Positions 7,481 to 53,014 of a stretch of DNA of 61,549 nucleotides are shown here, one piece after another. The translations under genes and the position numbers were made by a program. The notes beneath the pieces are model-generated. The model did no database searches and was not told the DNA's origin. It saw only the letters and a program-made list of their open reading frames with translations. Source of the DNA: Chara braunii (lineage: Eukaryota; Plantae; Charophyceae); contig BFEA01000006.1 in NCBI GenBank assembly GCA_003427395.1, positions 5,673,143-5,734,691 on the forward strand, in the 5' to 3' direction. The number at the start of each line of letters is the position of its first letter. The stretch's first letter is position 1.

Positions 7481-10400
7481 TAAAGGAGTCAGATTATATT
7501 TTGATAGGTAGTGATTTTGACAACCAACCCTTAATAGGGGAGGTTTTGCCATGAGTCTACCCATGCTTGAGCACGGGCATGGACCTATATTTAATTGCAG
7601 GTGAATTTATGTGGGAAAGTGCTATGAAGATTCACTCCCCATACACCGATGATGTAGCTTGGGGGTTGACCTGTCGTATGATATAGGTCTTCTTTGCACT
7701 TGCGATTCAAGATCAGGACTAGATTCATCTTGATCCTACAAGGATCACCTTCTGTTATCACTGATAACATGTCGATTGTCGATTCGTTGGTTTACGACTC
7801 AACTCCAATTCACCCCCAATACTCAACCTAAAAAGCCTTAACCCTGGTGATTTCATTGTTTTGTTAAGGTTTCACCCAGACTTTTATTAAATGGCCTTTT
7901 AACAAAGGTACTGAGTATTTAATCATGGTTGGTTGGATACGAGGTTGGGGCTTGCATGGCTAAAGCAAGGGGTATGAGTATAGAGATTGGTTGGAGTTGA
8001 CTCCGTGTAGTGCATGGCTTTTTGATTGAATCTTTGATGTGATTGCAGGTATGTTTAGTGATTCAGACTTTGGATTTGACTGTCTGCGCTCACATACATA
8101 TATATATGGTTGTGGGGAATCCCACTGTGATTGTGAGAAGTGATGGTCGTATACTTATTCCCCTACCCCTATATATACGTGTACCTGTGTTGGGAATTCG
8201 CGTGGCCTGAGAGACCCGCATATTAAGGATTTAATTAGGGGTTGAGATTGAGAAAAGAGAGGAAACCCCTTTATTCTGTTGAATATTTTTTAATGATTTT
8301 CTTAGTCGGACGTTGGTCCTGAGCCTGGATTCGAAATCCTTGTCCAGGACATCCCAGACCCTAGACTCTACATAGAAGGGATTACCCCTCGGGCAGAGCC
8401 TACTTGCCTTGCCTGCCAAGACACTCAGGCCAAAGGCCGGAGGTCTCACGGCGGCCTCACAGTTATTTATTCAGTCGTGCAATGTCGTGAGGGAGTAGAC
8501 TCTCACGATACTTCGAGTCTGACACATGAGTGTCATAAGCGGTACTCGGATCCACGAGGGGCCGCGTGATTATGGGCACTACATAGTACGTCGTCATTGT
8601 GAGTGCTTGCGTACACTGGCATTGCGAGTTGACATGGGTAGGTCCTGCGTCCGCGCTGCTTTATACTATGTCTCGCGCGTGACGCTTATCCGATTTCCGC
8701 ATCAGAAAGTTATGGGTTAGTTACCGAGGGACTAGGACCATTGCTGCATTGCTTGTTCAGTGTCATTCTGTCTATGTGTATGTAGGTGCGTATGTGTGTG
8801 TGTTTTTATTTTTATGTTCCTTGTAGTGGTGTGCTCGTAACGTGTGGGATGCGTCCTGGTCGACCGACGACGAGTCGTGCTTGGGACCTCAACCCCCCAA
8901 GATGTCGGTTCGCGTGCGGGTCCGATAGAGAGGTATTACCGCGCGTACCCCCTATGCTACGACGAACGAGAAACACGTCGGCTAATCCACCTCTGCGATT
9001 GCACCTGATCAACTTTCGTACTGTGGACTAGTAGCTCGGCAGGGATACGCCCACCGAAGGGAGGTGACAACACCCGTAAGGTGGAGGTAGGTCGTGCCTC
9101 GCGTAGGCCCTATCCTATCGTAGAGGCTGGTGAGAGGTATGGTTGGCGCACTCGGCCAGAGCGGCTTGAGGAAGCTCTATGTATATTCACGACTAGGATT
9201 TAGATCAACTCCTGCGTGACGCGGTGTCGGAGGGTGTGGTGTCCCGGCCCTCCTCCGTGTACCAAGCTCCTATTTGGTACCACTCTTTGTTTACATGTTG
9301 TGGTCATGTGGTGGTTCCCATACCACTAAGATCCTTAGTACCAGAGTCATATCGTGATATGGACCGACCCTATTGATGCCTGCTTCTGCAAAAGGTGCGC
9401 CACAGGGCCTTCCACTAGTCCACGCAGGTTCGGTGCCCTGCTGTACAGCAGAGCATGACCGACATGTAGCCGTGGTAGTCTCCGGGTTCACTATGGGATG
9501 CGGGGGTGAGAGGACTGGCTCATTCTTTTCAACCGCATACCTGTACTGAGTTATGGGATAGGTGCATGGGACAGAAATCGATGCCAAGAGAGAAAAGAGA
9601 AAAGGAAAAATAAAATGTCAGACTTAAGCTCACCTTTTGTAAGGGAAAAATCCAGTGGCCTCAGGCCACTGTGATGCTACGATTTCCATTCTATTTTTTT
9701 GGGGAGAACATATTATTCAATGGTCGTTCTGTCACTTCGTAGGGGAGGCCGCCGATTCAGGTTTTGAACTGCAACTGTGGTCTCATGGTTTGGGTCTTAC
9801 CGACCTCTTGTATGTCGCCTGTACCAGACGTGCGTATTCAGGACCGCGCGGACCCCGGTGGCCGGGTTAAGGGGCAGATACGGTAAGAACTAAAAAGGGA
9901 AAAATAAGAGAAGAAATAAAAGGAAAGGAAGAGAATGAAAATCAGGTTATAAACGTGTGCGGGAACGTGGGTCGTTGTTCAGGCAAGACTGCTGCACAAA
10001 GAGATCCTGGGACTTCAACCTTTTTTTTCTTCCGTCTCCTTTTTTTTTCCCACGGTTATTATTATTATTTTTTTTTTTATAATTATTACTACTTAGTTTT
10101 TCTAAGTTTGGTTTTCTACCTGTTGGCTTGTCCTTTCGCGGGAAGCCAACAGTTCGAATTTCGAAGTCAACAGTCCGTGGCCTAAGTAGGCCAATCTTGC
10201 ATTTACTGTCTGCGGGTGAGCCCCGATCTGGTGCTATGTTGTAAGACCCCAAAAGGAGAGCGACCCTCGACCGCATCGGTAGGAAGCCTATCACCCCCCA
10301 CGGAGGGTCATAGGCCTCCTTCTTGCCATCGAGCACGGGCACCCGATAGAAGTAGGCTGAAGGCATATCTTGAAGAAAGACGGAGATCCGTCGGTATCCT

Positions 10401-10648
10401 GTTATGGGACCGCCGGGTCGGATCCTTAAGTCGCTTTTAATGCCAGAAGAGTTTTAGTGGCCGGAAACAGAAGTAGATACGGTGACCGTTGAGTTCTGAA
10501 CTCATACACCTCCTAAATTGTCTAGTTTTAATTATTTTATTAATTTTATTTTTTTTTAATTATCTTTAAATCAAAAAGAGACGCAGGTTGAAAAGGACTG
10601 TTTCGAGTCTGTCAATTAGAACGCAGAGACCGCTGCCACCTTGAGCCC

Positions 10649-10655
10649 TATAAAA
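10649..10655 (+). promoter_or_regulatory. Candidate TATA box in LTR B (copy at 31193-31199)
   Basis: CCCTATAAAATAG in both LTRs, ~170 nt before the ATG at 10822. Confidence 0.35.
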
Positions 10656-10821
10656 TAGAAACTGTTACCTATGAGGGGCATGTTATTGCTCCGTGGGTGT
10701 GAGCGGCAATACACGTTGTGGCTTCGATTTTTCGATAGTCAGGACTGTCTGTTCAGTAGACTCGCGTGCTGGTTAGTACAGACTGAGCACTTGGCGTTGG
10801 CTACGGAGGGAGAGAGTGGCT

Positions 10822-11244
10822 ATGGAAGATCGGAACGGCTTGCGCGGCTATCGACCGCGGTATATGAAGTACTCCTGGATGTGGGAGCGGGAAGATGAGA
10901 AGGGTACTGTGGTGGAGACTATACTGACTTTTGGTAAACCTGACGGGGAGGTGAGGCTAAAGATTAACGTGTGCGGTGGTAAAGAACAGGAGATGAGGAG
11001 GGATGAAAAGGCGCAGGCCGCGGTTACCGAGGCCCGTAACAGGGCCGAACGAAGGTGCAGGCGGGATGGAGTAACTGCGAGCATGCGGGTAACGGTCACT
11101 TACCACGAAGATGATTCATCAACCGGGACCATGACGAGGGAGGAGCAGCACAATGACCGGGACTCAGAGGGTGAGTCAGAGATGAGTGACACAAATGCTG
11201 CTCAGGCCTGGCACGACCAGGAGCGGTATGAGGCTGGGCCCTAG
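10822..11244 (+). CDS. LTR-encoded hypothetical protein (140 aa, MEDRNGLRGYRPRY...)
   Basis: ATG-started ORF with protein-like composition downstream of a TATA-like motif. The copy at 31366-31788 is identical, but this block may be assembly-collapsed. Confidence 0.45.
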   Translation: MEDRNGLRGYRPRYMKYSWMWEREDEKGTVVETILTFGKPDGEVRLKINVCGGKEQEMRRDEKAQAAVTEARNRAERRCRRDGVTASMRVTVTYHEDDSSTGTMTREEQHNDRDSEGESEMSDTNAAQAWHDQERYEAGP

Positions 11245-11444
11245 GCACAAAAGGGGGCTGTCAACAGAGCGGGGAAAAAGAAAATACCGCGAGGGCAGCA
11301 CACTGAGGCAGGGGTTCGGATGAGACGCGCGTAAAATCTANGAGTGAAATACGAACTAGAGACGGGTACCTCGCGCGCGAAAAAAAAGGACACAAGGCTT
11401 ATGCGAGCAGAGGTCAGCGGGAGCACAAAAAAGGTTGTTGNTGT

Positions 11445-12104
11445 TGACGTCAACCTCGTCTCTTGGCTTGCCACGAGAGGTTTGAGTGAACACGAGTACG
11501 TGTGAGGGCGAGCAAGAGACAATAAATTAGTAGGGGTCATAGAGAGCAGAGAGACATGTTTCTCGAACGTGTAAGCTCACTAGTGAGAATTGGACAAAGG
11601 CTGCGGAGGATCTTTTAGTTGACGTCATCAGTAACAAGGGAGAGAGAAGAGGCTAGTGAGAGAGTAAAAGAGGCGGAACCTTAGATATAGAGAGATCGTG
11701 CGTAGTAGAGACCAGTTCGAATGTGGCGAGTGGGGGCTAACACGGGCCGGGAGAGATTGGTGATATCAACCCCGTCCTCGATCTGGTCACAAAGGTTTTG
11801 AGCAAGCACGAGTAGTGGAGGAAGGGTAGCCGTGAGTATGATTTTCGTGGCGTGGGCGTACGGACACTGAAGCTTTCAATCTTGTTGGTTTCACGTACTT
11901 GAGACAGTAGAGCGAAAGAGAGTTGATTAGGCGGATATGTCTCAAGATTGGGATCAGGAGTCAAAGGGACTACGCGAGGATGTGTGACTCTCGGGCAGGA
12001 CAATACGATACGCGCAGGAGGACAAAGAGAGGGGAGGGTGTCAACGAGGTGTGTTCTCGAACACATGCGTATCTGGTACTTGCTGATTAGATTAGTTGAC
12101 GTCA
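11445..12104. promoter_or_regulatory. Three GTTGACGTCA palindromic (bZIP C-box/CRE-like) motifs
   Basis: TGACGTCA at 11445, 11620 and 12097, mirrored in the 3' LTR. Binding is not demonstrated. Confidence 0.3.
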
Positions 12105-15100
12105 GCAACGATCTTCGTATACGCGTGTGAGGTTTGCTCTGGACAGCGTATCTATGGGTTTTTCGGCTCAACAGTGAGAGTACAAGACTATTGCCTACGA
12201 GGGAAAGAAAGGAAGGGTCTGGGAGTGTGCGTGTTGAGTAGTTGGAGGCAATTTAGTGGCAATTTTGACTTCCGGGTGAAAGAAACGTGCGCGAGTGAAC
12301 CAGCAGGGAGGAGCGTATGGATGCAAAAGAAGGGCTTCGCTAATACTTATCGTGTTACGAGCGTGTACTCCTCACCCAATTCTGAAGACTAGCCACCCGT
12401 GCGGGACTCATTCTCTTTTGTAGGCCACAGTGATCGTGGTCAATGTCTAGCGGCCTGTCTGTGTTTAGAGCTTCAGATGAGTGGGAGAACGCGTGATCGA
12501 GGTCCGAGTGTGATCGAGAGCCATGGAAAGGAGATTAGACTATGAGCCATGATGTGGATCAAACTAAGCGCAGTTTAACTTCAAAGTTGACATCAACTTC
12601 TTGCCACGACTCCTGTTTTTGACATAGCGAAGCAAACATAACGGGGAAGACCAGTACTTGAAAGCGCTAAATGAATCACGGGGAGGAGGCTGGGAGACCA
12701 AAATAAGAGTGACGCGATCCAATGTGGGGAATGAATGTAGGTGAACAGTGAGCATGACGCACTGGGATAACTTGTGAGGTATGGGTGATCAGGTGTCGTC
12801 AGCCTTTGTTCTGGTTGGTTACTGTTCGTAGACGTCCCTGTGCCTCATAACTGTGTCCATGGCTCGGATTTAGGGAAGAGTGACGAAGTGGCTAACAAAA
12901 CCAGAGTGATAAACTCTGTTTGATTAGTTCCTTTCCAGTGCGGAACAGGCAAGCATGTGATCTAACTGCTGACTCTCTCTCAAAGGTGATCGACCTTTGC
13001 AACTGCGTTGTTTCTTTGGTCCTTTATCTTCAGAGTCAATCTTGGGCAAACACTCATTCCTTCTTTGGCGACTATCATCTGTTTCTTCTTCGTGCTGATG
13101 AGGCTATGGAAAGGTATGAATCTGAGATACTTTGTTCAGGCTGAACAGACGGTCGTTGTTTGAAGTGGAAATCATCCTTCCAAATTGTGATCTGGTCTTG
13201 AGGGTGGTCTTGATATACAAGATTGTTGTTCTGAAAGTTTTCTCTCCTCCACTCGGACTTGCTCACTGGCGACCCTTTTTCTTTGTTAATAATTTTCTTT
13301 CTCCCTGTTGAGGGATAGGTACTAACTAATTTACTGTTACTTGATGGTCAACTAGTACGATCTAACTAATTCTGAATTTCTCAGTGTGGTCTTACCGTTA
13401 GCCCTCCTTTATTCCGTAAAGACGAAGGGTAAAACTGAGGGGGAATCTCTCATATTGATGACCGAGTTTCAGGGAAAATCTAAGGGGAGATGTGAAGTCA
13501 GATAATGAGGCCCTGATATATTCAATAATTACTATTTGCACCCCTCATCAAAAAGAAAAGCCGTGCAAAATGGTGTTGGCCGAACCAGGAGAGGTTCTTG
13601 ATTAGTATCTGGTGCCCTCTGAATAGGGTTCTGCTAAATGAGATGATCGAGAGTAGCAGCATTTTCGGTTTGTGTGATTGTTCACGCTTGCCAAATGGAA
13701 AAAAAACGTGCTATATTCAGAAAAATTGCATACGTGCTTGCGAAGCGCCTGCTTGATGGTGATTGACCGTCTGTCCCAACCGTGTTTTGTTGAGTGTCAA
13801 TTCAAAGAAGAGAGATGTGAGTTCTCTTGCTATGCCTTGGGGAATCTGTCTTCGTTCATTCTGAGAGGGTGAGCTAGCTTGTCCTTCTTCCTGGGAAGGA
13901 TGTCTACGCCACATTTAAGAATGGAGAGCAACAAGCTTGTCCTAACAGATCCCCTGTAATAAGTGTCAGCAGTAGTAAGCTCCTATGTGCCCCAAAATGC
14001 TCGAGGCAATTGGCCAAAGTCCCTATCTCTACGGACTAGATAAAACAAACTAGAGATGTGAGCTGCGAACTGATTAAGGATGTTAGTAAACTACTCCCAG
14101 TGCTTTTTGTACCATATCGAAACTGATAAGCTAAGAACGACAGGGCAGCGTACTTTCATCCCTGCCTCTAAACGTTAACGAACTAAGCCTGAGAGGTGTT
14201 CTTCTGAAGGTTCTAGCTATATCACAATCGGTGTAAATGTCTCAACTAATTATGTCCGTGAGTGAGGACTCAGATTATCTCATTCAATGACTTTTTGTTA
14301 CTCGTTGAGACTGAGGTTACCCCATCTGCATGTGCGGATGGGTAATTTTCAGTCGTTTTTCTGAACACTGAGCCTAGTCGAGGGGACTTAAGGGTCCCAT
14401 TGACTAAGGCTTAATGTTGATGGTTTTTAGTGCAGCCGGATCTGGAAATTACAGACTACCTGAATTAGGATACCAATCCAACGCGCCCTGAGCTTTGGAA
14501 GTTACAATTTTCTCGTCTGCCTTGTAAACGGGGATTACTCATCGCCTAGCACTTGGTTAGTTCACACCTTAGCGTGTGCTACGCGTGTAACACAATTAGA
14601 GGTTGGCTGGTCTGGGGAAATCAATAAAGTTTCTCGTGAAAGAGTGGCCCTAAGTGAAGGCCAAACTCATCATCGTGTCGCTAAGCATAGCAACTACGAA
14701 AACAATCCCTCGGATCTATACTGTAGTCAAGTTTTGGTGTTTTGAACCCAGTTAATCTGATCTGTACCTGGCGGTTAATATCCCGAGAGAACTGGGCTAT
14801 GTAAATGAAGGCCCTACTTGGTAGCTTTTGAATTGCAGTCAGCCTTTACCTGATTGCTTCCAGTTTCAGAGTCTTGTTTTTCTGACCCTGGGTCTTACAC
14901 GGTTGGGCTGGAACAGGGAAATGAGGGGTAAAGCTATTGTACGGGTGATCTGTTTGTCGTGCTAAGGTTTAACCAGATATTGAGGAGGAGGACAATCAAC
15001 GAGCTTTTAGGAGGACAGTCAATGAGCGTTTGTGAGAGGAGCTGGCTATCTGTTTTGTCTTGAGGTTAAGTCTGATTGAATGCCCAGTGAAGCATCGGAG

Positions 15101-15403
15101 GAACAACAGTAATTGCCCTCAGTCTGCAACCTCTCGAAGCTTAGTATAGTGATCGGTTAGCAAATGGCCGCCATTTGCTAGCCTGTAGTTGAATTTCTCA
15201 TGAACAGTGCTCACGTGATTGTCTAGAACAACAACTAATAGGAAAATGATACTCAATGTGAAAACAGGCGAGTTAATTCATTAGAGAATTTATTCTGATT
15301 GAGGACGCTTGAAGCTTGTACTATCTATCCCTTTTGACAGGGTTATTCAGCAAAGAGATATTCATATACTGGCCTCGCTTTTACTCATCGACCCAGCTGA
15401 GAA

Positions 15404-15655
15404 ATGGGGGACGAGGATACAGTGAGAGTAACCTGCTCTCTGCGCCAAGGCACGTCTGAAGATCGGAGAGAGACGGCCATCGAGGAATATAATTTGCAAA
15501 CAACCATGATGATGGAGCACGAGCTGACATTAGTAAGACACCAAACTAAAATTGAGTACATCTATTATTTGCACGACAAAAACGGAAGATTCTGTGTCAC
15601 CATCTTATTAGTGGGCTCGGTCGAGGATGCAAGGAGAACTGTCTATGGGCGTTAA
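15404..15655 (+). CDS. Accessory protein family 2, member a (83 aa, within LTR)
   Basis: Open in both LTRs (also 35948-36199). SEDRRETAIEEY...LTLVRHQTKIEYIYYLHDKNG aligns with ORF 20377 SEDDERELIEGY...LPLITTQSVIAYTLYIQDSQG. Confidence 0.6.
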   Translation: MGDEDTVRVTCSLRQGTSEDRRETAIEEYNLQTTMMMEHELTLVRHQTKIEYIYYLHDKNGRFCVTILLVGSVEDARRTVYGR

Positions 15656-15760
15656 TGAGATGAGACGTCATCAGACTAAAGCGGAGTAGGGAAAGCTGAG
15701 TCATTCCCAAAACTGGATTCAGTCGAATGTATGGTAAAACTACTAAAGCATAGAGGCGGC

Positions 15761-15955
15761 CAGCAATCAGTTCATTCAGCAATCAGTCGAGAAAACAGTT
15801 CGGTAACGAGTTCAGCAATCAGTTCATTCAGCAATCAGTCAAGTAAACAGTTCAGTAATCAGATTTGCAATCAGTTTAGCGATCAATTCAGCAATCAGTA
15901 TAGCAATTAGTTCATCAAATCAGCAATTAAATCAGCAGACAACCAGCAGGCAACA
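15761..15955 (+). repeat. CAGCAATCAGTT-type degenerate tandem repeat just before the family-1 genes
   Basis: Repeated TTCAGCAATCAGT units; the 3' LTR copy (36304-36545) has one extra ~45-bp unit. Confidence 0.8.
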
Positions 15956-15968
15956 ACCATCATCATAC

Positions 15969-16585
15969 ATGAGTGCATTCCGCTACTATTCAGTTAGCGA
16001 TTCAGTGCTGGCCAACTTCAATAGGATCTCCCTCAAGGAGTCATTCGGTACCGATATGTCAGTGCCACATGTTTCAAGAGAGGGGACCTGTCGGTCTTTG
16101 TTGTGCTCACCAGTTTTGCAGGAGGCACTATTCATGACCTGAGACTTTACCTGAAGGAAGGAAAGGAGGATCATGAGCACTTTGACTCATTCTGGATCCC
16201 AGCAATCAGCTATCTCAGTCGGAGGGAGCGTGAGTACGATGAGAGAGGAGACACGTTGATCTGTAGTTTTGGACCAAAGCTGTACTCTGACTACCCCAAA
16301 CCCCCGGTACCATGTCTGCTTACTGATGGGACCTGTTGGGGAGATTTAGTTGATTTGGCAAAGAGATACATCTCTCTCTCTGTGATAGGTCACGAGGACT
16401 CATCGGAGCATCAGCCTACGCGCTGGGATGAGTTTTGTTCCATGGTCAACTATCGGATCATGTGTGAGGGTTGGGATTGCTCCAGGCTCGTTGGATACAG
16501 ATGACTCTATGGCCCGATTTCCCGATCTCAGAGGACACGTAGACACGTATCGAGGCAGAGGAGGGGGACAGATGTGACATATTGA
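15969..16585 (+). pseudogene. Accessory protein family 1, member a (5' LTR copy, disrupted)
   Basis: Copy of the intact ORF 36564-37181 with a 1-bp deletion near 16040 and TGG>TGA at 16502-16504. Confidence 0.8.
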
Positions 16586-16634
16586 GGGTAAGATCCAGCA
16601 GAGTCTGGCGAACGACCAACCGTCATTTAAGCAC

Positions 16635-17312
16635 ATGTCAGAGATCAAGCCCATCACGATTGACCAGTTGGTTTTTGACAAACTCAACCGGCTGTCTTCA
16701 AGAGAGAGCTTTCCTTACAAGTATGTCAAGATCGATGGTTTCCAGGTGGAAGATCTGTCAATCTTCGTTGCTCTCACTGAGTTCGCAGAAGGCACGATCA
16801 AAGACCTACGGATTTATCTGAAGAAGGGTAAAGAGAACCATACACATTTTGATGCGTTGTGGGCTGCTGCAGTCGGATTCGTACGGCGGAAAGTGGATCA
16901 GCTGGAGGGTGGCACGAGGCTAGCTTATAGCTTCGGTCCCAAACTTTTTTCTGACAATCCTAAACTTCTAGTTCCATACTATCTTATAGACGGATCCTGC
17001 AGGGAAGGTTTGGTGGATTTTGCTAAGAAGTATCTTTCTCTTGCAGCAATTGACTATGAGGCACTGACAGAGCCTTCTGAGTTTCCTCATCTCAGACGAG
17101 GGGTCTTCTCATGGTCGTATCTTCCCTCTGCATGAGAAGAATTTTGTATCGTCCTGGACTTACACATGAGTCATGGATGTGATTCTCTAAAGATAGCGAG
17201 CTTCAGGTGGGGTTTCATTGAAAAGCCTCAGCCTCAGGAAGTGCAGAGACGTGACCGAAAGCATGAGAGATAGCCAGCCAGACGAGAGAGACAGAGATGT
17301 TTAGAGGGATGA
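16635..17312 (+). pseudogene. Accessory protein family 1, member b (5' LTR copy, premature stops)
   Basis: Copy of the intact ORF 37231-37908 with TGG>TGA at 17133-17135 and a TAG at 17271-17273. Confidence 0.8.
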
Positions 17313-17666
17313 GTGAGGACTCTTGACTAGTGCTGGTCACTCTCTTTTCATATGTACTTTCTGAAACTATTAGGAGTTATCACTTTTCCCTCATTCACCC
17401 TGTTTTTGCCTTGAGTCAGTCAGTCTAGGTGTTCCCTTCTGGCGTTTGATTGATGATTGCACTTCATTGCTGATTATGTCGAAGTTCTCAATCCTCTAAA
17501 TTGGCATCTTAATGCACATATAAGACATTTAATTTAAATTTTATTATCTGCATTATCATTGTTGTTCCAAATCACAATTAAAGATTCCTAAGACCGGGGT
17601 CCGGCGAAGACCGTAATTGAAGGGTCTCGCTCGAAGCCAGACGCACACAACAGGAAGGGATTTGCA

Positions 17667-17762
17667 TTATTTTATTTATTTTATTTATTTTATTTATTTT
17701 ATTTATTTTATTTATTTTATTTATTTTATTTATTTTATTTATTTTATTTATTTTATTTATTG
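17667..17762 (+). repeat. (ATTTTATTT)n microsatellite near the LTR end
   Basis: About 10 units here against about 3 in the 3' LTR (38265-38293). Confidence 0.9.
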
Positions 17763-17846
17763 AGAGCACAACCAAAATCCTGTGTGACATCCTGTTGGCT
17801 TTCCGGTCGCCTAAACTGGCTCGACTGGGAAAAAGTGCGACAAGAA

Positions 17847-17864
17847 TGGCGCCGTTGCCGGGGA
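17847..17864 (+). promoter_or_regulatory. Primer binding site complementary to tRNA-Asp
   Basis: TGGCGCCGTTGCCGGGGA, 4 nt after the LTR end, is the reverse complement of the 3' 18 nt of plant cytosolic tRNA-Asp(GUC) including CCA. Confidence 0.9.
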
Positions 17865-18183
17865 CATGAAAAGATTTTTGTGTCCGAAACGAACCTGGGT
17901 CATCATCATCATCGTCTTGAGTTTTGATTAGAACGTGAGAACTGTTGACATTTCTGTGAGCTTTATGTTAATTTTATTATTCTCATTTAAGTCCTGAATT
18001 TCTTGAAAATCACGACTGCTAACTATGATTTATGTCTTCCTTGTGTGAGGTACCACACTGGATCGGGAAAAGGAGATTGATATTATTGACGGGAGAGAAT
18101 CGAGCTTGACACCAGATATGCCCAATTATCGCTCAACACGCTGAAAGGAATCGAAAGGAAGAGAGTGAGACGGATCGAGACAA

Positions 18184-18597
18184 ATGCTGGTCAACGGTGT
18201 TCTGAAAGAATTGTCTAAATTTACGACAAGAAGGATATTTCCTTACAGGTATGAGGCTTGTTGGGGCTATCATTCTTGTGGCTCAACCATCTGCGTAGTG
18301 CTGACTCATTTCTTGGAGGGAGATGTCTATGATATCCGCCCATATGTCAAGGAAGGAGGCAACAATGATGGTGAGAATTTTAATTGGTTATGGGAGATCG
18401 TGATTCAATTTATCTATGACGAAAAGGAAGACTTGATTAAGCAAAAGAAGAAAGTGGAATGGGGTATAATGCCAGTAACATACAAGACTGTTCTGATTCC
18501 TCCTATACCTGACAACTATTGTGATGGGACTAATTGGCTGCCGATAATCAACGTGGTATTGACAAGGGGGAAAAGAAACGGTGGTCATGAGAGCTGA
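18184..18597 (+). CDS. Accessory protein family 1, member c (137 aa)
   Basis: LSKFTTRRIFPYRY...VVLTHFLEGDVYDIRPYVKEG...FNWLW...PPIP...DGTNWLPII matches the motif order of members a and b (LNRLSSRESFPYKY...VALTEF..G.I.DLRIYLK.G...FD.LW...PPVP...DG.CW). Confidence 0.7.
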   Translation: MLVNGVLKELSKFTTRRIFPYRYEACWGYHSCGSTICVVLTHFLEGDVYDIRPYVKEGGNNDGENFNWLWEIVIQFIYDEKEDLIKQKKKVEWGIMPVTYKTVLIPPIPDNYCDGTNWLPIINVVLTRGKRNGGHES

Positions 18598-19078
18598 AGA
18601 GATTTCAGCAGAAGTAATCAGATAAAGAAGGTCAAATTTTGGCAGAGGTTCGGGTCCAAATCAAGAGAAGGTCGAATGTCTCCTAAAGTCGTTGAACACT
18701 CTAAGCAAGAGAGAGACGTTTTCATATGAAGTTGTCAGGTATGAGATGGTCGAGAGCGGATGGGAGCAGGAACGATTAAATGTACTGACATTCTATTTCA
18801 CAGACCTGGATGTGTATGACGTAAGAATGTATGTTCCAAAGGAAAGAAGTGTTGATGCGGTATATGGGAGATGTTGGGGGTTTGCTGGATCTACTCGATT
18901 TACTGTCTTCGAGAGAGAGAGGCTTGAGAGAGAGAACAAGTATTTCACTAGATCTACTCGATTTACTGTCTTCGACAGATTTTCAGCTCCTCCCTTGCCT
19001 GATATAAATTTATTAAAAGATAATTGGTTTGCGGTGATTGAGTTTGCCCAGAAAGTGAGAAGAGGTCAAAGAGTCTGA
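18587..19078 (+). pseudogene. Accessory protein family 1, member d
   Basis: In-frame ATG at 18587 overlaps the end of member c; one in-frame TAA at 18623-18625; open frame 18692-19078 with LNTLSKRETFSYEVVRYE...YDVRMYVPK...CW...APPLP...NWFAVIEF. Confidence 0.65.
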
Positions 19079-19554
19079 TGAGCCGATGCTATATACCCTT
19101 GAAGGAGAGGTCTAAGCTTAGACTCATAAGAGGCCATGAAGGGCTGAGTAAGGCTGAGTCAGACAAGCTATTGAATTTTCTTAATTCTATAGCATGTAAG
19201 GTTGTAATTCCTTATGAAATCGTGAGGTATGAAACCATAAAGAGGTCAGGACAAGAACAAGACAGTCTGTATGTTCTTACATGCTATTTTATTGATCTTG
19301 ATGAATATGATATTGGGATTTATATGCCGAAGCAAAGATTTGATGAAAGCCGAAAAGGTGCGTGTTGGCAACGAGCGTCAAATTTTGTGCATGATAAGAA
19401 GAGAAGATTAGAGCGAGAGGGAAGAAATTTTTCCTTTAGCACCTATGTCAGACCTTTTGTTGGAATAGCGTCTCCACCTGTTGAGGGACTCATATTCCCA
19501 AGATACAATTGGTATGCCATGATAAAGTTTACATGGAAAGTGAAGAGAGCCTAA
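19078..19554 (+). CDS. Accessory protein family 1, member e (158 aa)
   Basis: Start overlaps the previous stop as TGATG (19076-19080). Closest to member d (YEIVRYE, DLDEYDIGIYMPK, CW, RLERE, SPP, NWYAMIKF). Confidence 0.7.
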   Translation: MSRCYIPLKERSKLRLIRGHEGLSKAESDKLLNFLNSIACKVVIPYEIVRYETIKRSGQEQDSLYVLTCYFIDLDEYDIGIYMPKQRFDESRKGACWQRASNFVHDKKRRLEREGRNFSFSTYVRPFVGIASPPVEGLIFPRYNWYAMIKFTWKVKRA

Positions 19555-19960
19555 GAAGAATACTCTCAGTAGCCAGGATAACTACTGTGAGGGGTAAACT
19601 TTATGAGGTGATAGAGTGTGATAATCCTTTTGTGATCCTGAGATATGAGACTTGTGAGAGAGGATTCATAATATTTCACATTTCAGTGGTCAAATTTCTG
19701 AGTACGGGCAGTCTGGACGTAAGGATTTATGTACCGACAGGTCTAGAAAAGGAAGATGACTACTTGAAGTGTCAGACAAGTGCTTATATTAGTCTCATAA
19801 GAACCAAAGAGTGGCTTGAAAAGTTAAAAAGAAAAGTAACATGAGGGAAATAAGTAAGACAATTGGAGAGGCTCCCTTAGTTCTCGATTGCTAAGGGATT
19901 TGAAGACAGGAGAGATTGGATGCCTCTGTTGGAAGCTATTGCTGAGATTGGTAGAGCAAG
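19509..19960 (+). pseudogene. Accessory protein family 1, member f
   Basis: ILRYE...LDVRIYVP. Reading through in-frame stops after 19844 gives KVT*GK...DRRDWMPLLEAI, matching member c KVEWG...DGTNWLPIINV. End coordinate is approximate. Confidence 0.55.
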
Positions 19961-20088
19961 AGAAAAAGACTCCACTGTGATGATAAAATCTCTACTTTTC
20001 AGTAACTTTGAATACATATTCGATCTCCCCAATTACAGCCAGCCCGAGATTTACCTTTCTTGATTCTGTCTGTGATGCCAAAGTAAGG

Positions 20089-20373
20089 ATGCCTGGCCCT
20101 AGAAACCGATTCACCTTCAGGGTCGTGGTAGAAGAGGGGGTAGTAAAAACCGGAGGTACCCTCGAAATTCCTAATATAGATCTCTTTGGGTTTGAAGAGC
20201 AGGAACTTGTGCAACCTTATATAGATCGGATGAGAGAAGCCGCTTTGAGGGTTGTTACTGGCCAGACTTAAATCAGTTATTTGCTGAAGGTGGTAAGAGT
20301 AGGAGTCTCTGAGTATTATGTTTCTACTATAGAACAAGTATCCCTTGCTAGGGAAATTAGTAACAGATCGTAA
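20089..20373 (+). pseudogene. Accessory protein family 2, member b
   Basis: EEQELVQPYIDRMREAALRVVTGQT*ISYLLKV...VSLAREI (stop at 20269-20271) aligns with member c. Confidence 0.6.
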
Positions 20374-20376
20374 GTC

Positions 20377-20643
20377 ATGCAGTTTGATTATGAGATAATA
20401 GATTTAACTCGTTACTTTATGAACAGAGGAACTATTAAAGGGTACAATAGAAGATTGAGTGAGGATGATGAGAGGGAACTGATTGAGGGTTATGTTGGGA
20501 GGTTGAGAAGGATTGCCTTACCCTTGATTACTACTCAATCCGTTATCGCCTATACTCTTTATATACAAGACTCTCAAGGGGTGAAACAGACAAGGGAAGG
20601 GAGAAACGAGTTCGTATCCCTTGCAAGGAAAGTGAGGGACTAA
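20377..20643 (+). CDS. Accessory protein family 2, member c (88 aa), directly upstream of gag
   Basis: DERELIEGYVGRLRRIALPLITTQSVIAYTLYI...VSLARKV; starts 3 nt after the stop of member b. Confidence 0.65.
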   Translation: MQFDYEIIDLTRYFMNRGTIKGYNRRLSEDDERELIEGYVGRLRRIALPLITTQSVIAYTLYIQDSQGVKQTREGRNEFVSLARKVRD

Positions 20644-20706
20644 AGAAAAGAGAGAAAGAGCAGGAGGGAAAAAACTAAGAGTGATAAACGAAAAAGAGAG
20701 TAATTA

Positions 20707-22419
20707 TTGAGAAAATTTATGGTTAAGATGGCGGGTCGTTCGAAGCCTACTTCTTCAACAGGGACTAATGAAGAAGCCTTGATCGGTGTCATACGGGAGT
20801 TGGTCGAGAGAGTTGATACCATCAAAAGCGGGTCAGACATTGCAAGGGCAAAGAGACCTGATGAGAGAATTCCCTGTTTCAGAGGTCCTCAAGTGAATGA
20901 TTTCCTAGACGAGTATGAGCTGTTTGGTCTCAGTTATGGTTGGACAGAAAAGCAACGACTGAAGCACCTCTTATCTTATTGTGATACTGACTCAAGATTG
21001 GCAGTTCAAAAGTTGATGGAAGGTGCCACAACATGCGAGGAAGTTAAAGAAAGAATTTGAGAAGGATTCGGTTCCAACTACAACTAAAGACTTACTCAAC
21101 ATCAGAAGAGCTAAGTACGACACTTTCAATTTTTTCTTCAGACCTTTATCCGGACAGCAAGAACAATTTCATATTTGAACGAAGCTCAGAGATGCCGTAT
21201 ATTTTTGACAAATTTTACTGATACCGAAAGGCAAACAGTTCTTAATCAAGTTCAGCACTATCCTCTCAGGTGGGATGAAATGCTTGCAATCATAAGAACT
21301 CTACCTACTGTCTCCCATGAGAAATGGTCACTTGATCAGATCAGTACTTTGGCCAAGGATTGGAAGACTGAGAATGAAATGAATAGAGGAAGCAATCTAA
21401 CAGCTGAGAATATTCTTCAAAAAGTGATGGCTAACTTTATGCCTGCAAGGCCTGCAACGCATGCTCTGGATAACAGGGGAAAGAAAAAGGTTGAAAGTGA
21501 GGAAGATGACGACTATGATGATGACGATGAAAATCATGGTAAGAAGGGGGATTCGTTCAGAACCAAAAGGAATGGGAAGAATGGTGATGGAGGACACAGA
21601 GAGAGAAGAAAATATGATGAGCGTCCTAAGAGGAGTTTTATTTGCTACTATTGTGGCGAAAGTGAACATACTACCACCTATTGCAAGTCTCTTGAGGAGG
21701 ATGTAAGGAGTGGGGTGGCAAAAAAAGATGCAATGGGTCATGTCTGTGATAGCTAATGGAATAAGTTGGACCCCAGACATCCGGGAGGTATGAGGCTTCT
21801 TGCTCTTAAACATGATGAAAAGATGAAGATTAAGCAGAAGAGAAAGGCCAATATGAATGTTCATTTCCTCACTGGAGACTTGCCTAATGAACTAGTACAA
21901 AGAGCAGATGACCCTTATACCACGATTGAGTTGTCTCTGCAGTCCTTAACATTGACAGAGTGTGGGCCTACCGAGGCATCTACAAGTGAGTCTCCACTTG
22001 GAGGGAATCCTACTTCTCATAATCTTTCTGAATTAGTAGAGTCCTCTCCCAATGAAATGGCTCGTCTCCTGGCTAATATGATGTCATTCCATGGTGATCT
22101 ACCCCCAGAACTTATCATGGAACCCAGTGTCAGGGTCGGTGAAGTAAGAAACCATCAGACCCGTATGACACCTCAAATGATAGAAGCAAAGAAAAGAAAG
22201 AAGGTTGAGGAGTCACTTATTAACATCCTTGATAACCCTAAACCGGAACGTTCACCGAAAAAAAATGAACAAGGGAGAAAGATAAAATTTATTCTCAATA
22301 GTGATTTGGATGATGGGACTGTGATTTCTGATGTAATTGCTAAGATGCTGGAAGAAACGGAAGTGACACTGTCTTTCAAGGAAACAAAGACACTAGCACC
22401 CAAACCGAAGAAGAGTTGA
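20707..22419 (+). pseudogene. gag: Gag (capsid-like region, CCHC knuckle, linker) with in-frame stops
   Basis: ORF pieces 20707, 21175 and 21766 share one frame; IPCFRGPQVNDFLDEYE...WTEKQ gag-like motif; CYYCGESEHTTTYC zinc knuckle. Confidence 0.85.
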
Positions 22420-23177
22420 AGAGGTTAATTGAGAAGAAGAAAATGGAAGTTAATTTTTTGGGGTCAATCTTTCTCAACCAAGTGAAGAGATCTCCACCAG
22501 GTTGCAAGATGAGATTTGCAACCATGGGTTGTGGGCATCTTACAATTCGCATTAATCAAGTGAAGATTCTAGCCCTAGTAGATTCTAGGGCAAAGATGAT
22601 ACTTCTTTCATGAAGAACGATGGAAGCATGTAATTTATCTATAGTCAGACTTGTACAAAATGTACTGAGTAATATTGCAGGCGAGCTGTTCGTGGCAGGA
22701 TTCATTGATAATTTGCCTATCAAGGTAGGGACAATGACTGTGGAGTTATTGGGTTTTGTAGTACCGGATCTGGATCATGACTTCATCTTGGAAACTTCAT
22801 TCTTGCATAAGATGGAAGCGGTCCAATTTTTCAGTCATAAGGGGTCGTCCTGGATCAGTTTACAGGATTCTGAGACTGCTCAAGAGCAGACCTTTACGGT
22901 CGGTACGAAAAATGATTTCAAGCATCAACTATCTGTTAATTCGATCAGGAGAGAGGAATCTGCTGAAAGGGTTAGGAGACTAAAGGAGGAAGGAAAACGA
23001 GAAGCAAAAGAAGAGATTTCAGTGGGGATCAACCAAGTTTTGAAAATGATGAAAGTCCTTGGTAAACTCGAGGATGAGGACGGGCAAATTGAAGCCTTCA
23101 AGAAAGTTGTAGAAACTGCTAAGGGAGGAAAGATGAAATTGAGATTTGCATTGACTCACCCTTTTTTAGGAAAATAG
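22416..23177 (+). pseudogene. pol: Aspartic protease (degenerate)
   Basis: ILALVDSRA (D-S-G motif mutated) and downstream FVV...DFILET; in-frame stop at 22611-22613. Confidence 0.8.
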
Positions 23178-23212
23178 TCACTGGGTCAAAAAGAAAATAC
23201 AAGCCCAAGGGG

Positions 23213-24355
23213 GTGAAGAAAAACCCAGTGACAGTCTTAATAGAGAAATATTATGATGAAGCATTGAAAAAGGAAAGACAAATTATAAGAGCATTGAGGA
23301 AATCAACAAAATTGGAGAATAGAGTCACCAAAGAGAGATTCGACACAATGAAGATAGGCTCGGATCAATTTATCCTGCCTAAAGAGAAAAAATATGTCTT
23401 CAAAGTGTGTCAAGAATTCTCTGGTGCTTTCTCCTTTAATGATGAAGAGAGAGGGCGGTTGGGCGTGAACATGATCAAGATGGTTAATATCTGGACAGTT
23501 GATCATGTTCCATGGAATGATAGACCAACCAAGTATGCCCTAAAGGAAGAAGCGGAAGTAGTAAAGTACCTTGACAAGAAGATTGCATCTAATGTTGCTG
23601 AACCTGCTGATGGACCGTATGCTAACCACTGGTTTTGTTTCTGGAAACCAGGGGGCGGACTAAGATGGATACAGAATCTTCAGAAACTCAATTCTGTGAC
23701 GGTACATGATGCAGGGAGTCTTCCTAATGCTGATCTCCTCGCTGAATCCTTTGCTGGTCGATGTATTTATTCTCTAGTTGACCTGTATTCTGGCTATGAT
23801 CAGTTCCCTATTAATCCCACTAGCCGGCCAATGACTGTCATGCACATGCCAAGGGGGCTTGTTCAGATGTGCGTGGTACCTCAGGGCTGGACTAAAGGAG
23901 TGGCAGTGGTTCAAAAGGATATGATCAAAGTCATGCAGGATATTTCCCCTGAAATAACAAGTCTCTACATTAATGATAATCCTGTAAAAGGACCCTTGGT
24001 AAGAGATGAAACTTTGGTCGCAGGGGGAGTCAGGAAGTTTGTCTGGGAACATGCTGAAGGAGTAAAGATGGTCCTAGAAAAACTTTGGAAGTATAATCTG
24101 ACCGCCAGTGGGCCAAAGTCCCTTCTCTTCCAACCAGAAGTGATAATCTTGGGCTTCAGATGCTTCTCCAAGGGTAGGAGCTCAGATCCCAAGAAGATAG
24201 ACAAAATCTTTAACTGGCCTCTGCCTCACAAAACAGTAACAGATGTCAAGAGCTTTTTGAGAGTCTGTGGATTCTGGAGGATTTTTACTCCTCATTTTGC
24301 TGCCCTTGCAGAGCCTCTGAGAAAAATGGTAAGACAAGGGGCTAACTTAGCATGA
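23213..24355 (+). pseudogene. pol: Reverse transcriptase (catalytic YxDD degraded to YIND)
   Basis: LRWIQNLQKLN, YSLVDLYSGYDQ, VVPQGWT, YINDNPVKGP, VRKFVWEH, ILGF, VKSFL..CGFWRIF; the frame continues into RNase H past a probable TGG>TGA stop. Confidence 0.92.
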
Positions 24356-24385
24356 AATGATAAGAGACAGGCTGCAGCAGAAACG

Positions 24386-24946
24386 TTGAAAGAAAAACTA
24401 AGAGATGGCGGTGTAGTGCTGGGAGTACCATATTATGATGATGAGGAGACAAAACCTTTCATCATTGAGGCGGATGAAGGACCAGTTGCTCTGGGTGGAG
24501 TACTTATTCAGAAAGATGAAAATGGGAGAGAAAAACCTCTAAGATTTGAAAGCAGAACCCTCAATTCTACTGAAAGAGGCTACACCCAATTCAGGAAAGA
24601 GCTACTGTCAATCATCCATAGCCTCGGGTGCTTCAGGCACTACGTTTTGGGAAGGAGATTCATCATGAGGACTGATGCATCTGTTGTGATAGGTGTCATT
24701 AAAAAGCATCAACAGGTAGATCCAACAGTCAGCAGGTGGATCGCTTTCATCAGGACATATGATTTTAAATTGGAAAAGATTCCCACTGAGAAGAACAGAG
24801 CAAATGGCTTAAGCCGGATTGAGTGGCGAGAAGAAGAAGAAGATGTGAATGAAACAATTGAAGAATCTGCCTATGTTGATAATTTCCTTAATGAAAANGA
24901 TGATGAGGATTATGAGGCAGCATGCTCCTACAAGTGGAGTCTGTGA
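24386..24946 (+). pseudogene. pol: Ty3/gypsy RNase H
   Basis: FIIEAD...LGGVLIQ...PLRFESRTLNSTERGYTQ..KEL...FIMRTD...ANGLSR. Confidence 0.9.
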
Positions 24947-25269
24947 CCTGAAGAGAGAGATAGTTGGGGTAAAATCCCAAGTGCATACATTTATGAATCG
25001 ATTTTTGGGAAAGAGGAAGAAGATGAACCGAACGATTGGTATGCCAGAGTTAATGCAGCAGCAGTGACTGCTCATGAGATTGGGGAAAAGTTCAGGTTCA
25101 AAGGAAGAAGAAGAGAGTGAAAAGAAGGAAGAAGAGATATTTTTCTTCTTTGAAGAATATGATGAAGATCATCAAGAGATTGGTAGAAAGATAGAAAGGG
25201 AGCAGCTAAAAGAATATTATTGTAAAGATTCAAGGAAAAAATTTCAGGCTAAAAAGAGGACATCTCTTT

Positions 25270-26457
25270 GTGGATGGTAAGGGAGGCCTACCTCCACTAA
25301 GAGTGGTCTGTGGTAAAGAGAGGCAGTTAGACATAATTGCTGCTCTACATGAAGGGGTTGTCGGTGGCCACAGGGCTGCTGAGGCTACCTACTCCAAGAC
25401 TGGTAAACTCTACTCTTGGTTTGACATGAGAGATATGATTTTCAGATACTGTAAATCATGTGTCTTATGTTAGAAGAGGTGTACCACAAGGATGATTGAG
25501 CCCCTATTTCCTACAATCCTGGTAGAGTCAGGTAGTAGAGTTTATCTGGATCTCATCACTATGCCTTCAGGCAAGGGTGGGATGAGATACATACTAAACA
25601 TGAGAGATAATTTATCTGGATACGTTGAGGCAAAAACTCTGAAAAGAAAGACAGTCGAGCAAGTGGCTGATTGGATAGAGGAAGTTTATCTCAGGTATCC
25701 TTTTATCAGAAAATTTGTCTCAGACAGAGGATCAGAATTCAGAAATGAGGTTGTCAGAAGAATTACACTCAGATTGGGTGTCAGAATTCGATATGTGACT
25801 ACTTACCATCCTCAAGCGAATGCACCTGTTGAAAGAGGCCACAAAACTCTGAAAGATTCATTGGTCAAGTGGTGTGAAGGGAAACTCAGTAACTGACCAA
25901 AGGTGTTAAGAGTTGTTGTATATGCTGATAATATCACAGTCAAGAGGACTACTGGTTATGCACATTTTACTCTGTGGTACGGCCGATATGCTACATTGTC
26001 TATTGAAAGTATTGTCAAGACATGGTCAAGTCAAGAAAATGACAGGCATTATTCTATTTCAGAACTCCTTCAGATCAGAATGAGAGAGATATCTGAAGTC
26101 GATCAGGCAGTGATGGATGCAGCAGAGAGAATGGCATCCAGCAGGCTATCAGATCAAGAAAGATGGAACAAGAAAAGATATATAAGAAAAGAGAATTTGA
26201 AGATTGGAGATGTTGTTCTTCTGTTTGACAGTCCCTTTGAGACACAATGGACTAAAAGATTGGAGCCTGGATGACTTGGTCCTTACAAAATCACAGGAGA
26301 GGCAGAGGGCAAGGTTTATGAGATCTCATAAATGGATGGATTCAGGGTTCATGACATGGTATCAAGATCAAGACTTCGTAAGTTCATCTTTAGAGACCCT
26401 GACTTCATCCCAACAGTGACTCCAAAGAGAGGAAAGAGAAGTCAACCATCCAAGTAA
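25270..26457 (+). pseudogene. pol: Integrase (HHCC, DDE core, GPY/F), no chromodomain evident
   Basis: LHEGVVGGH...CKSCVLC; VYLDL...DNLSGYVEA...VSDRGSEF...YHPQANAPVERGH; *LGPYKI; several in-frame stops; ends TAA 26455-26457. Confidence 0.9.
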
Positions 26458-29654: not shown

Positions 29655-30533
29655 TGTCGGAGGGCGTGGTGTCCCAGCCCTCCTCTGTATACCAAGTTCC
29701 TATTTGGTACCACTCTTTGTTTCAATGTTGTGGTCCTGTGGTGGTTCCCAGACCACTAAGATCCTTAGTACCAGGGTCATATCGTGATATGGACCGACCC
29801 TGTTGATGCCTGCTTTTGCAAAAGGTGCGCCACAAGGCCTTCCACTGGTCCACGCAGGTTCGGTGCCCTGCTGTACAGCAGAGCATGACCGGCCTGTAGC
29901 CATGGTAGTCTCCGGGTCCACTCTGGGACGCAGGGGTGAAAGGACTAGCTCAGTCTTTTCAACCTCGCACCTGTATTGAGTTATGGGATAGGTGCACGGG
30001 ACAGAAATCGATGCCAAGAGAGAAAAGAGAAAAGGAAAAATAAAATGCCAGACTTAAGCTCACCTTTTGTACAGGAAAAATCCAGTGGCCTCAGGCCACT
30101 GTGATGCTACGATTTCCATTCTATTTTTTTTTGGGGAAGATATTATTAGTATGATTATTATTGTTATTTACCTAATTTTCTTACTTCCGGTTTCTCAATG
30201 GTCGTTCTGTCACTTCGTAGGGGAGGCCGCCGATTCAGGTTTTGGACTGCAACTGTGGTCTCATGGTCAGGGTCTTACCGACCTCTTGTATGTCGCCTGT
30301 ACCAGACCTGTGTGTTCAGGACCGCGCGGACCCCGGTGGCCGGGTTAAGGGGCAGATACGGTAATAACTAAAAAGGAAAAAATAAGAGAAGAAATAAAAG
30401 GAAGGGAAGAGAATGAAAATCGGGTTATAAACGTGTGCGTGAACGTGGGTTGTTGTTCAGGCAAGACTGCTGCACGAAGAGATCCTTCGACTTCAACCTT
30501 TTTTTTTTTTCCGTCTCCTTTTTTTTTCCTACA

Positions 30534-30623
<90 letters not shown>

Positions 30624-31365
30624 TATTTATTACTACTAAGTTTTTCTAAGTTTGGTTTTCTACCTGTTGGCTTGTCCTTTCGCGGGAAGGCAACGGTTCG
30701 AATTTCGAAGTCAACAGTCGGTGGCCTAAGTAGGCCAATCTTGCATATACTGTCTGCAGGTGGGCCCCGATCTGGTGCTATGCTGTAAGACCCCAAAAGG
30801 AGAGCGACCCGCGACCGCATCGGTAGGAAGCATATCGCCCCCCACGGAGGGTCATAAGCCTCCTCCTTGCCATCGAGCACGGGCACCCGATAGAAGTAGG
30901 TTGAAGGCATATCTTGAAGAAAGACGGAGATCCGTCGGTATCCCGTTATGGGACCGCCGCGTCGGATCCTTAAGTCGCTTTTCAGGCCAGAAGAGTTTTA
31001 GTGGCCGGAAACAGAAGTAGATGCGGTGACCGTTGAGTTCTGAACTCGTACACCTCCTAAATTGTCTAGTTTTAATTATTTTATTAATTTTTTTTTTTTT
31101 TAATTATCTTCAAATCAAAAAGAGAAGGGGGTTGAAAAGGACTGTTTGGAGTCTGTCAATTAGAACGCAGAGACCGCTGTCACCTTGAGCCCTATAAAAT
31201 AGGGGTTGTTACCTATGAGGGGCATGTTATTGCTCTGCGGGTGTGAGCGGCAATACACGTTGTGGCTTCGATTTTTCGATAGTCAGGACTGTCTGTTCAG
31301 TAGACTCGCGTGCTGGTTAGTACAGACTGAGCACTTGGCGTTGGCTACGGAGGGAGAGAGNGGCT

Positions 31366-31788
31366 ATGGAAGATCGGAACGGCTTGCGCGGCTATCGACC
31401 GCGGTATATGAAGTACTCCTGGATGTGGGAGCGGGAAGATGAGAAGGGTACTGTGGTGGAGACTATACTGACTTTTGGTAAACCTGACGGGGAGGTGAGG
31501 CTAAAGATTAACGTGTGCGGTGGTAAAGAACAGGAGATGAGGAGGGATGAAAAGGCGCAGGCCGCGGTTACCGAGGCCCGTAACAGGGCCGAACGAAGGT
31601 GCAGGCGGGATGGAGTAACTGCGAGCATGCGGGTAACGGTCACTTACCACGAAGATGATTCATCAACCGGGACCATGACGAGGGAGGAGCAGCACAATGA
31701 CCGGGACTCAGAGGGTGAGTCAGAGATGAGTGACACAAATGCTGCTCAGGCCTGGCACGACCAGGAGCGGTATGAGGCTGGGCCCTAG
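31366..31788 (+). CDS. LTR-encoded hypothetical protein (copy of 10822-11244)
   Basis: Identical translation to the 5' LTR copy. Confidence 0.45.
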   Translation: MEDRNGLRGYRPRYMKYSWMWEREDEKGTVVETILTFGKPDGEVRLKINVCGGKEQEMRRDEKAQAAVTEARNRAERRCRRDGVTASMRVTVTYHEDDSSTGTMTREEQHNDRDSEGESEMSDTNAAQAWHDQERYEAGP

Positions 31789-37181: not shown

Positions 37182-37230
37182 GGGTAAGATCCAGCAGAGT
37201 CTGGTGAACGACCAACAGTGATTTAAGCAC

Positions 37231-52171: not shown

Positions 52172-52202
<31 letters not shown>

Positions 52203-53006: not shown

Positions 53007-53014
53007 GTGAGTGG

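Follow-up and report, generated by a model that had tools for sequence, protein, structure and literature searches.

The 61,549-nt stretch of Chara braunii DNA analyzed here (the window; GenBank assembly GCA_003427395.1, contig BFEA01000006.1, positions 5,673,143 to 5,734,691, forward strand) contains a 29-kb Ty3/gypsy long terminal repeat (LTR) retrotransposon with a series of small genes lying partly within the LTR and partly between the LTR and gag. We conclude, with a probability of roughly 90%, that this array consists of functional accessory genes of the element. In the account that we favor, the element would have ten such genes, six of them old, selection-kept paralogs of one small protein, F1. 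The six internal genes (F1c to F1f, F2b, and F2c) would be translated by ribosome termination-reinitiation on the 5' part of the element RNA. The LTR genes would make up a separate block, probably placed in U3, that is expressed either from a promoter of the LTR itself or from the 3' end of the RNA.

An earlier reading of these letters (the original prediction) had described nine genes of two families, F1 and F2, as one operon spanning the boundary between the LTR and the primer binding site (PBS). The order that it gave (F2a, a tandem repeat, F1a, F1b, LTR end and PBS, F1c to F1f, F2b, F2c, gag, all on the plus strand) holds at the coordinates in Table 1, and all nine genes were located, but a tenth conserved open reading frame (ORF), ORF X, had been overlooked. 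Between 15404 and 20643, 4/9 frames are open (F2a, F1c, F1e, and F2c). F1d of the present copy contains an internal duplication with 63-nt spacing, and the gag ATG lies at 20719, 75 nt past F2c. The spacer that holds the 12/52-bp repeat is A-rich, free of ATG, and weakly folded; for the F1a spacer in the 3' LTR, the folding energy was -15.0 kcal/mol, compared with -29.5 ± 4.3 kcal/mol for shuffled sequences.

Table 1. Features of the element and its gene array (positions in the window)
Feature	Position	Strand	Description	Basis
Host element	9225-38375 (29,151 bp)	+	LTR retrotransposon, Ty3/gypsy	
5' LTR	9225..17842	+	8.6 kb, TG...CA	self-BLAST; ends and 4-bp target duplication GCGG
ORF X	10822..11244; copy 31366-31788	+	tenth conserved ORF, inside LTR	
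F2a	15404..15655; 3' copy 35948-36199	+	83 amino acids (aa), open in both LTRs	
Tandem repeat	15761..15923	+	12/52 bp, before F1a	
F1a, 5' LTR	~15969..16582	+	broken: frameshift near 16040, stop at 16502	
F1b, 5' LTR	16635..17312	+	internal stops at 17133, 17271	
PBS	17847..17864	+	18-mer starting TGG, 4 nt past LTR	sequence
F1c	18184..18597	+	137 aa, open	relative P0025 41% identical
F1d	18587..19078	+	stop at 18623; ATG overlaps F1c end	P0021 aligns from 18587
F1e	19078..19554	+	158 aa, open; TGATG stop-start overlap with F1d	
F1f	19533..20063	+	in-frame stops at 19842, 19851, 19878	
F2b	20089..20373	+	in-frame stop at 20269	
F2c	20377..20643	+	88 aa, open	
gag region	20719..22419	+	broken; CCHC zinc knuckle within 21115-21756	
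pol	22614..26274	+	protease-position ORF, reverse transcriptase (RT), RNase H, integrase; stops and frameshifts	
3' LTR	29655..38375	+	second copies of ORF X, F2a, F1a, F1b	
F1a, open copy	36564-37181	+	205 aa	3' LTR
F1b, open copy	37231-37908	+	225 aa	3' LTR

Both LTRs have TG...CA ends and are flanked by a 4-bp target duplication (GCGG), as in Ty3/gypsy elements, and the pol domains follow the gypsy order of RT (PF00078), RNase H (PF17917), and integrase (PF00665). The PBS is presumably of the tRNA-Asp type. Neither the gag region nor the protease-position ORF of pol gave a Pfam match. Among 20 RT matches, 13 were Chara braunii gene models (42 to 63% identical), the closest to this RT, and one was from a basidiomycete; this suggests a host of the Chara type. 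Several stops and frameshifts in gag-pol indicate that this copy of the element is dead. The LTR pair shows no difference over ~10725-14200, with N at matching places, and ~5% divergence on both sides; this stretch and its 3' LTR counterpart are probably an assembly collapse, and since the LTRs are partly collapsed, the whole-LTR distance of 0.029 is unreliable.

The evidence for one F1 family comes from comparison of the members with one another (F1a and F1b from the 3' LTR, and F1c to F1f; 13 to 49% identical). In 12/15 pairs, none of 300 shuffles reached the observed score; in the remaining three, all with F1f, 1, 1, and 7 of 300 shuffles did, so the six-member family that had been proposed stands well above the shuffled background. 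A profile of F1 run over the window found eight places, namely, the six members and their two duplicates in the LTRs, with no other match below an independent E value of 5; the profile was built with its members and is circular for them, showing only the absence of a further copy. The unity of F2, also proposed, was upheld in part: F2b and F2c are clear paralogs (z 13.8, 0/1,000 shuffles), but the link to F2a is weak, being significant to F2c (z 4.4 and 1/1,000 shuffles for the 5' LTR copy; 13/1,000 for the 3' copy) and not, by shuffles, to F2b (60/1,000 and 128/1,000). Profile comparison of F2a with F2b/c gave an E of 0.004, with 0/40 column shuffles. ORF X is possibly a remote F1 relative, with a gapless 54-column match to the F1 profile (E 0.039, 1/40 shuffles); it is also 53% identical over 117 aa (E 3e-22) to the N terminus of P0023, a Chara gene model that carries an F1 domain as well. 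Profile comparisons detected no relation of F1 to F2 (E 0.46 and 0.65) or of ORF X to F2.

Synonymous sites between paralogs are saturated: the proportions of synonymous and nonsynonymous differences (pS and pN) were 0.80 and 0.36 for F1a-F1b and 0.81 and 0.39 for F1d-F1e. Neutral simulations at matched identity, 100 runs each, gave a pS-pN gap of at most 0.27 and left only 1 to 2 of 100 sequences free of stops. Among 146 pattern matches, a single related locus (L001) was found, and it keeps the order of F2a before F1a. Against this locus, F1a has a nonsynonymous rate (dN) of 0.24 and a synonymous rate (dS) of 1.73, giving a dN/dS of 0.14 over 128 codons (p 4e-16), and F2a has a dN of 0.23 with saturated dS over 72 codons; the two shifted frames had no such synonymous excess. 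Both genes are frameshifted in L001. Because dS is saturated between paralogs while the protein is kept, and because dN/dS to L001 is ~0.14, F1 and F2a are, by these comparisons, protein genes under selection. Between the 5' and 3' LTRs, dN/dS was 0.8 for F1b, 0.9 for F2a, and 0.3 for F1a. Word-based searches returned nothing for F1b (0/120 candidates) or F2 (0/63).

Searching 1.84 billion proteins with the F1 profile gave eight matches, of which seven were credible: three Chara gene models and four stand-alone proteins of 121 to 161 aa on short contigs. The eighth, P0028 (E 4e-4), was dropped as a repeat-like chance match. In the F1 tree, these outside relatives join separate subgroups (support 100% for a/b, 100% for d/e, and 94/90 for c), and the approximately unbiased test rejected a tree that unites the six paralogs of the window (p-AU 3e-6); the paralogs were therefore distinct before the related elements diverged. 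Together with the saturated dS and the dN/dS of 0.14, this bears out the old duplication under purifying selection that the original prediction had suggested: dN/dS was far below 1. None of the three outcomes that it had named as contradicting it (nonsignificant alignment of the members, dN/dS near 1, or a match to a described family) was seen. A Ulp1/SUMO-protease ORF (L001:420-1154; PF02902, E 9e-25) with its His/Asp/Cys motifs lies on the same strand in L001, 1.5 kb upstream of F2a-F1a. It has no counterpart in the window's LTR and may be an accessory gene of the related element or belong to a neighboring transposon.

The internal genes are packed tightly: 98.9% of 18184-20643 is coding, and each start lies -11, -1 (TGATG), -22, +25, or +3 nt from the preceding stop, so that 5/5 junctions fall within -22 to +25. 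The intervals between these genes are too short to hold promoters or poly(A) sites. ATGs are not depleted between the LTR end and gag (66, against 66.6 ± 7.5 expected), and since all 66 precede gag, leaky scanning is unlikely. The layout suggests that gag is reached through the six internal genes by ribosome reinitiation or by splicing, with reinitiation favored. F1b is followed up to the LTR end by ~530 noncoding bases that are T-rich and carry ATTAAA at 17577, and then by the PBS leader; because these separate F1b from F1c, the array is probably two blocks, the LTR genes and the six internal genes. The gene order of the proposed operon is thus real, but its singleness is weakened. A bacterial promoter scan stayed at chance level and is not relevant.

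The median summed DNA contig depth, which is not a copy number, was 6,553 over 18015-20129 and 12,261 over gag-pol. It fell to 74 to 434 over 20130-20834 (the F2b end, F2c, and the gag start), a segment barely common to other copies at 88% identity. The F1c-F1f block is common to many element copies, and the F2b/c part is variable. The sharp drop marks this segment as one that changes fast or is exchanged.

F1b was modeled poorly by AlphaFold2 (predicted local distance difference test [pLDDT] score of 57), but the relative P0024, for which 13 members were aligned, gave a good model (pLDDT 79, with 87 to 96 in the core), in which a helix, a three-strand meander, a long helix, a fourth strand, a Pro-rich tract, and a final helix follow one another. 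F1 is predicted to be a small soluble alpha/beta domain. Conserved positions include F on strand 2, D-x-R-x-Y on strand 3, W on the long helix, and PxPPxP; F, D, and Y are invariant, together with R, W, and the Pro-rich tract. F1 has no conserved Cys or His, and none of 12 proteins has a membrane span (maximum 19-residue hydropathy, 0.28 to 1.47). With no transmembrane segment and a position 5' of gag or in the LTR, not between pol and the 3' LTR, these ORFs do not resemble env. Isoelectric points (pI) range from 6.3 to 9.4 (6.3 to 6.7 in F1a-F1c; 8.5 to 9.4 in F1d-F1f) and net charges from -1 to +7 with no common sign, so that a shared nucleic-acid-binding role is not favored by charge.

At curated Pfam cutoffs, 0/10 array and ORF X proteins and 0/13 F1 members had a match, including to PMD, Transposase_28, or Athila ORF-1. 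PHROGs, PDB sequences (E 10), phage records, viral contigs, and Rfam gave nothing credible, Foldseek runs of the F1 models against PDB and viral libraries found nothing at E 0.001, and the ESM Atlas offered no usable feature match. Structural alignment with VIA-align gave no F1 match above Z 5.6, where Z 8 is the program's bar and lower values are the range for a common arrangement. Gelsolin/villin domains were the top or tied-top rows for both F1 models (Z 5.0 to 5.6; root mean square deviation [rmsd] 3.3 to 6.0), with Crl rows at Z 4.9 to 5.4 and rmsd 2.7 to 2.9; by sequence or profile, no F1 member resembled gelsolin/villin. EEP nucleases appeared among the ESM Atlas structure rows with TM scores of 0.46 to 0.59 on a model of pLDDT 0.56, all below the bar of that tool, and were rejected. 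A suspected likeness to PC4/Sub1 and double-stranded RNA-binding domain folds was absent from every fold-search listing, which does not exclude it. A MAIN/PMD-like fold was not among the rows listed for F1, which does not exclude one. As the original prediction had it, then, F1 matches no known domain by sequence or by model; because there was no Pfam, PHROG, PDB, or Foldseek match and no row at Z 8, we leave the fold without assignment and do not claim that it is new.

What the proteins do can be approached from these features. Since signs of an enzyme, a membrane protein, or a common nucleic-acid binder are missing, and since six diverged copies suit several targets, F1 proteins may be binding modules. 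They would keep one conserved core and vary their surfaces, each toward different host targets, and such binding of host proteins would serve counter-defense. We hold tentatively, at less than even odds, that the paralogs each engage their own host proteins and so weaken silencing or otherwise turn the cell toward replication of the element. VANC anti-silencing proteins diversify together with their targets (PMC5735166), and the predicted host contacts of transposable-element accessory proteins outnumber those of enzymes (PMC13547354). A bolder version, which we consider doubtful, is a giant algal lineage of LTR elements with a virus-like arsenal: up to ten genes, perhaps seven of one new small fold (F1 and ORF X), a ribosome-coupled polycistron plus an LTR cassette, and each paralog disarming a different host defense factor. 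If so, the LTR gene cassette would travel with every solo LTR.

Other roles have to be weighed against host-protein binding. F1 proteins could handle the element's own RNA, as a factor like the caulimovirus transactivator (TAV), by which ribosomes would reinitiate across the six ORFs and arrive at gag, or as a Rev/CERV-type export factor for so long an RNA. The position of gag behind six ORFs and 66 ATGs recalls cauliflower mosaic virus (CaMV) RNA, whose closely set, slightly overlapping ORFs depend on a factor from the virus (PMC5972666); CERV of Cer1 is a precedent for an export factor in an LTR element (PMC10309623), and F1d-F1f are mildly basic. F1a-F1c are nevertheless neutral, Pfam showed no RNA-binding family among the array or F1 proteins, and one factor would do, which leaves six paralogs at such low identity unexplained; we judge this role unlikely. 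Less probable still are VANC-like DNA binders that would act on the 12/52-bp repeat and keep the LTR unmethylated. The repeat lies immediately 5' of F1a in both LTRs, VANC targets are likewise tandem repeats (PMC5735166), and the observed/expected CpG ratio is higher in the LTR (0.64 to 0.80) than in gag-pol (0.35). L001, however, retains F2a-F1a with only one copy of the repeat motif, no PMD or other DNA-binding family was matched in Pfam, and F1a and F1b have no net positive charge.

The gelsolin/villin rows (Z 5.6, rmsd 3.4, 78 aligned; Z 5.5, rmsd 4.0, 80 aligned), together with internal genes that directly precede gag as if cotranslated, might point to gelsolin-like or particle-associated modules for actin-cable attachment or an outer layer, with transport in giant algal cells. 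We find this quite improbable, as the Z scores are below 8 at 4 to 18% identity, Crl scores alike, no PDB sequence matched at E 10, and the Gelsolin Pfam family was found in 0/13 F1 members. Finally, the array could be a passenger, a captured host gene that duplicated, does nothing for the element, and is now decaying. Broken frames, the want of an RNA signal for the internal block, and the segment at 20130-20834 scarcely found in other copies would fit, but gag-pol is equally broken, neutral evolution cannot produce saturated dS while keeping the protein and leaving frames open, and 0/7 credible relatives is an annotated host gene. The passenger explanation is largely refuted and very improbable.

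Several points weigh against our account of a functional accessory array with reinitiation and counter-defense. The present copy is decaying, with 5/9 frames broken, and 9/13 listed variant sites in F1c/d/f are nonsynonymous, like 15/21 in gag-pol; variant classes among copies mostly reflect this copy's own decay and are uninformative. The dN/dS against an outside copy comes from two genes on a single 3.4-kb contig (L001), and the selection detected is purifying. The RT in the three F1-bearing Chara gene models is only ~25% identical to that of the element, which makes these models likely chimeric; they do not prove the linkage of F1 to this RT clade for which the original prediction had proposed to search. 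Calicivirus termination upstream ribosome-binding site (TURBS) motif 1 precedes 1/5 internal junctions, as expected by chance (6 in 2,876 nt), and a branch-point/polypyrimidine/AG run at 18019-18049 would allow splicing. Three poly(A) RNA runs, searched over 17780-24800 (with the LTR genes outside) in 6 to 12% of each run, gave no sense-strand signal for the internal block: runs X5 and X7 had 17 and 30 reads, and the 918 reads of X6 are likely DNA, since they are strand balanced (168 versus 173) and follow DNA depth (rho 0.67). The counter-defense role itself is guessed from precedent and missing features.

LTR elements with one extra ORF have been described before, and the number, paralogy, and LTR placement are what is unusual here; the "novel system" of the original prediction is therefore too strong a term. 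An orphan sense ORF before gag, in long elements that also have long LTRs, is found in Ogre, TatII, Tekay, Retrosat2 ORF0, and Athila ORF-1, and such plant 5' ORFs, like the present array, diverge fast and have no known function (PMC6317226, PMC3485330); a review treats what such additional ORFs do in LTR retrotransposons of plants as an open question (PMC7264820). The extra ORFs of a broad plant survey are heterogeneous and at least 250 codons long, whereas the ten ORFs here have 83 to 225 aa, with six of one family and four in the LTR; its maxima were 24.1 kb with LTRs of about 5 kb, compared with 29.15 kb and 8.6 kb here (PMC6317226). Athila/Ogre/Retand elements make 5-bp target duplications, unlike the 4 bp of this element. 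In the survey, 4-bp NCGN sites occur only in the short, ORF-free Phygy elements, which are moss non-chromoviruses (PMC6317226). GCGG, our one site, fits NCGN, and no chromodomain was seen; Phygy, however, measures 7.7 to 10 kb, lacks extra ORFs, and mostly has a tRNA-Trp PBS (PMC6317226).

VANC proteins of VANDAL transposons resemble the array in that the element itself encodes them, they are diversified accessory proteins, and tandem repeats lie close by, but they belong to a DNA transposon and have a MAIN-like fold (PMC13547354), which was not among the rows listed for F1. With CaMV TAV, SART1, and caliciviruses the array shares tightly spaced ORFs, short overlaps, and a UGAUG junction in retroelement RNA (PMC5972666); neither a relative of TAV nor a consistent TURBS motif is present in the array. 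Bdelloid ORF3s were also among the literature compared.

Retroviral protein genes within the LTR, duplicated in each provirus, are exemplified by nef and the mouse mammary tumor virus (MMTV) sag gene. They share the location inside the LTR; in the present element, each LTR carries four genes, which have relatives among the internal ones. We found no description of a multi-paralog array of this kind in the literature searched, which did not extend to the Chara braunii genome paper; further survey element lists may hold relevant cases. That genome paper reportedly describes Chara-specific gypsy elements that have long LTRs and measure 20 to 30 kb. The broad features of this element family have therefore probably been reported already, and the ORFs may be mentioned in the supplements of the paper.

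Elsewhere in the window, an older repeat surrounds the element (4418-9224 and 38376-38433) and has a relative at 45199-48870 (73 to 80% identical). Between integrase and the 3' LTR, a noncoding 318-nt inverted repeat (27588-28365; 98% complementary, 142-nt loop) could, as RNA, fold into a long hairpin and give rise to small RNAs. Directly before the 3' LTR lies an Arg-/Pro-rich antisense frame of 168 codons (28876-29382, minus strand); antisense ORFs at the corresponding position are known from other plant elements. A charged, coiled-coil-like 504-codon ORF at 1051-2565 has no Pfam match and is probably part of another retroelement. Positions 51832-53010 are likely the first exon of a host alpha/beta-hydrolase gene, with Gly/Glu low-complexity tracts and weak PAF-AH/chlorophyllase matches at its end (E 0.002 and 0.18), and 55318-58990 holds several tandem arrays with units of 31, 41 to 44, and 53 bp.

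The element widens the limits of LTR retrotransposons, being longer than any in the broad plant survey (PMC6317226) and carrying genes in its LTRs, and gag behind six ORFs needs unusual translation. One charophyte study limited LTRs to 6 kb and required 5-bp duplications (10.1101/835561). Because this element falls outside common detection settings and its 83- to 225-aa ORFs are under the survey's 250-codon cutoff, similar elements may be overlooked elsewhere. One element here provides six paralogs of a compact, well-modeled domain, several of them open, so that function and divergence are testable side by side.

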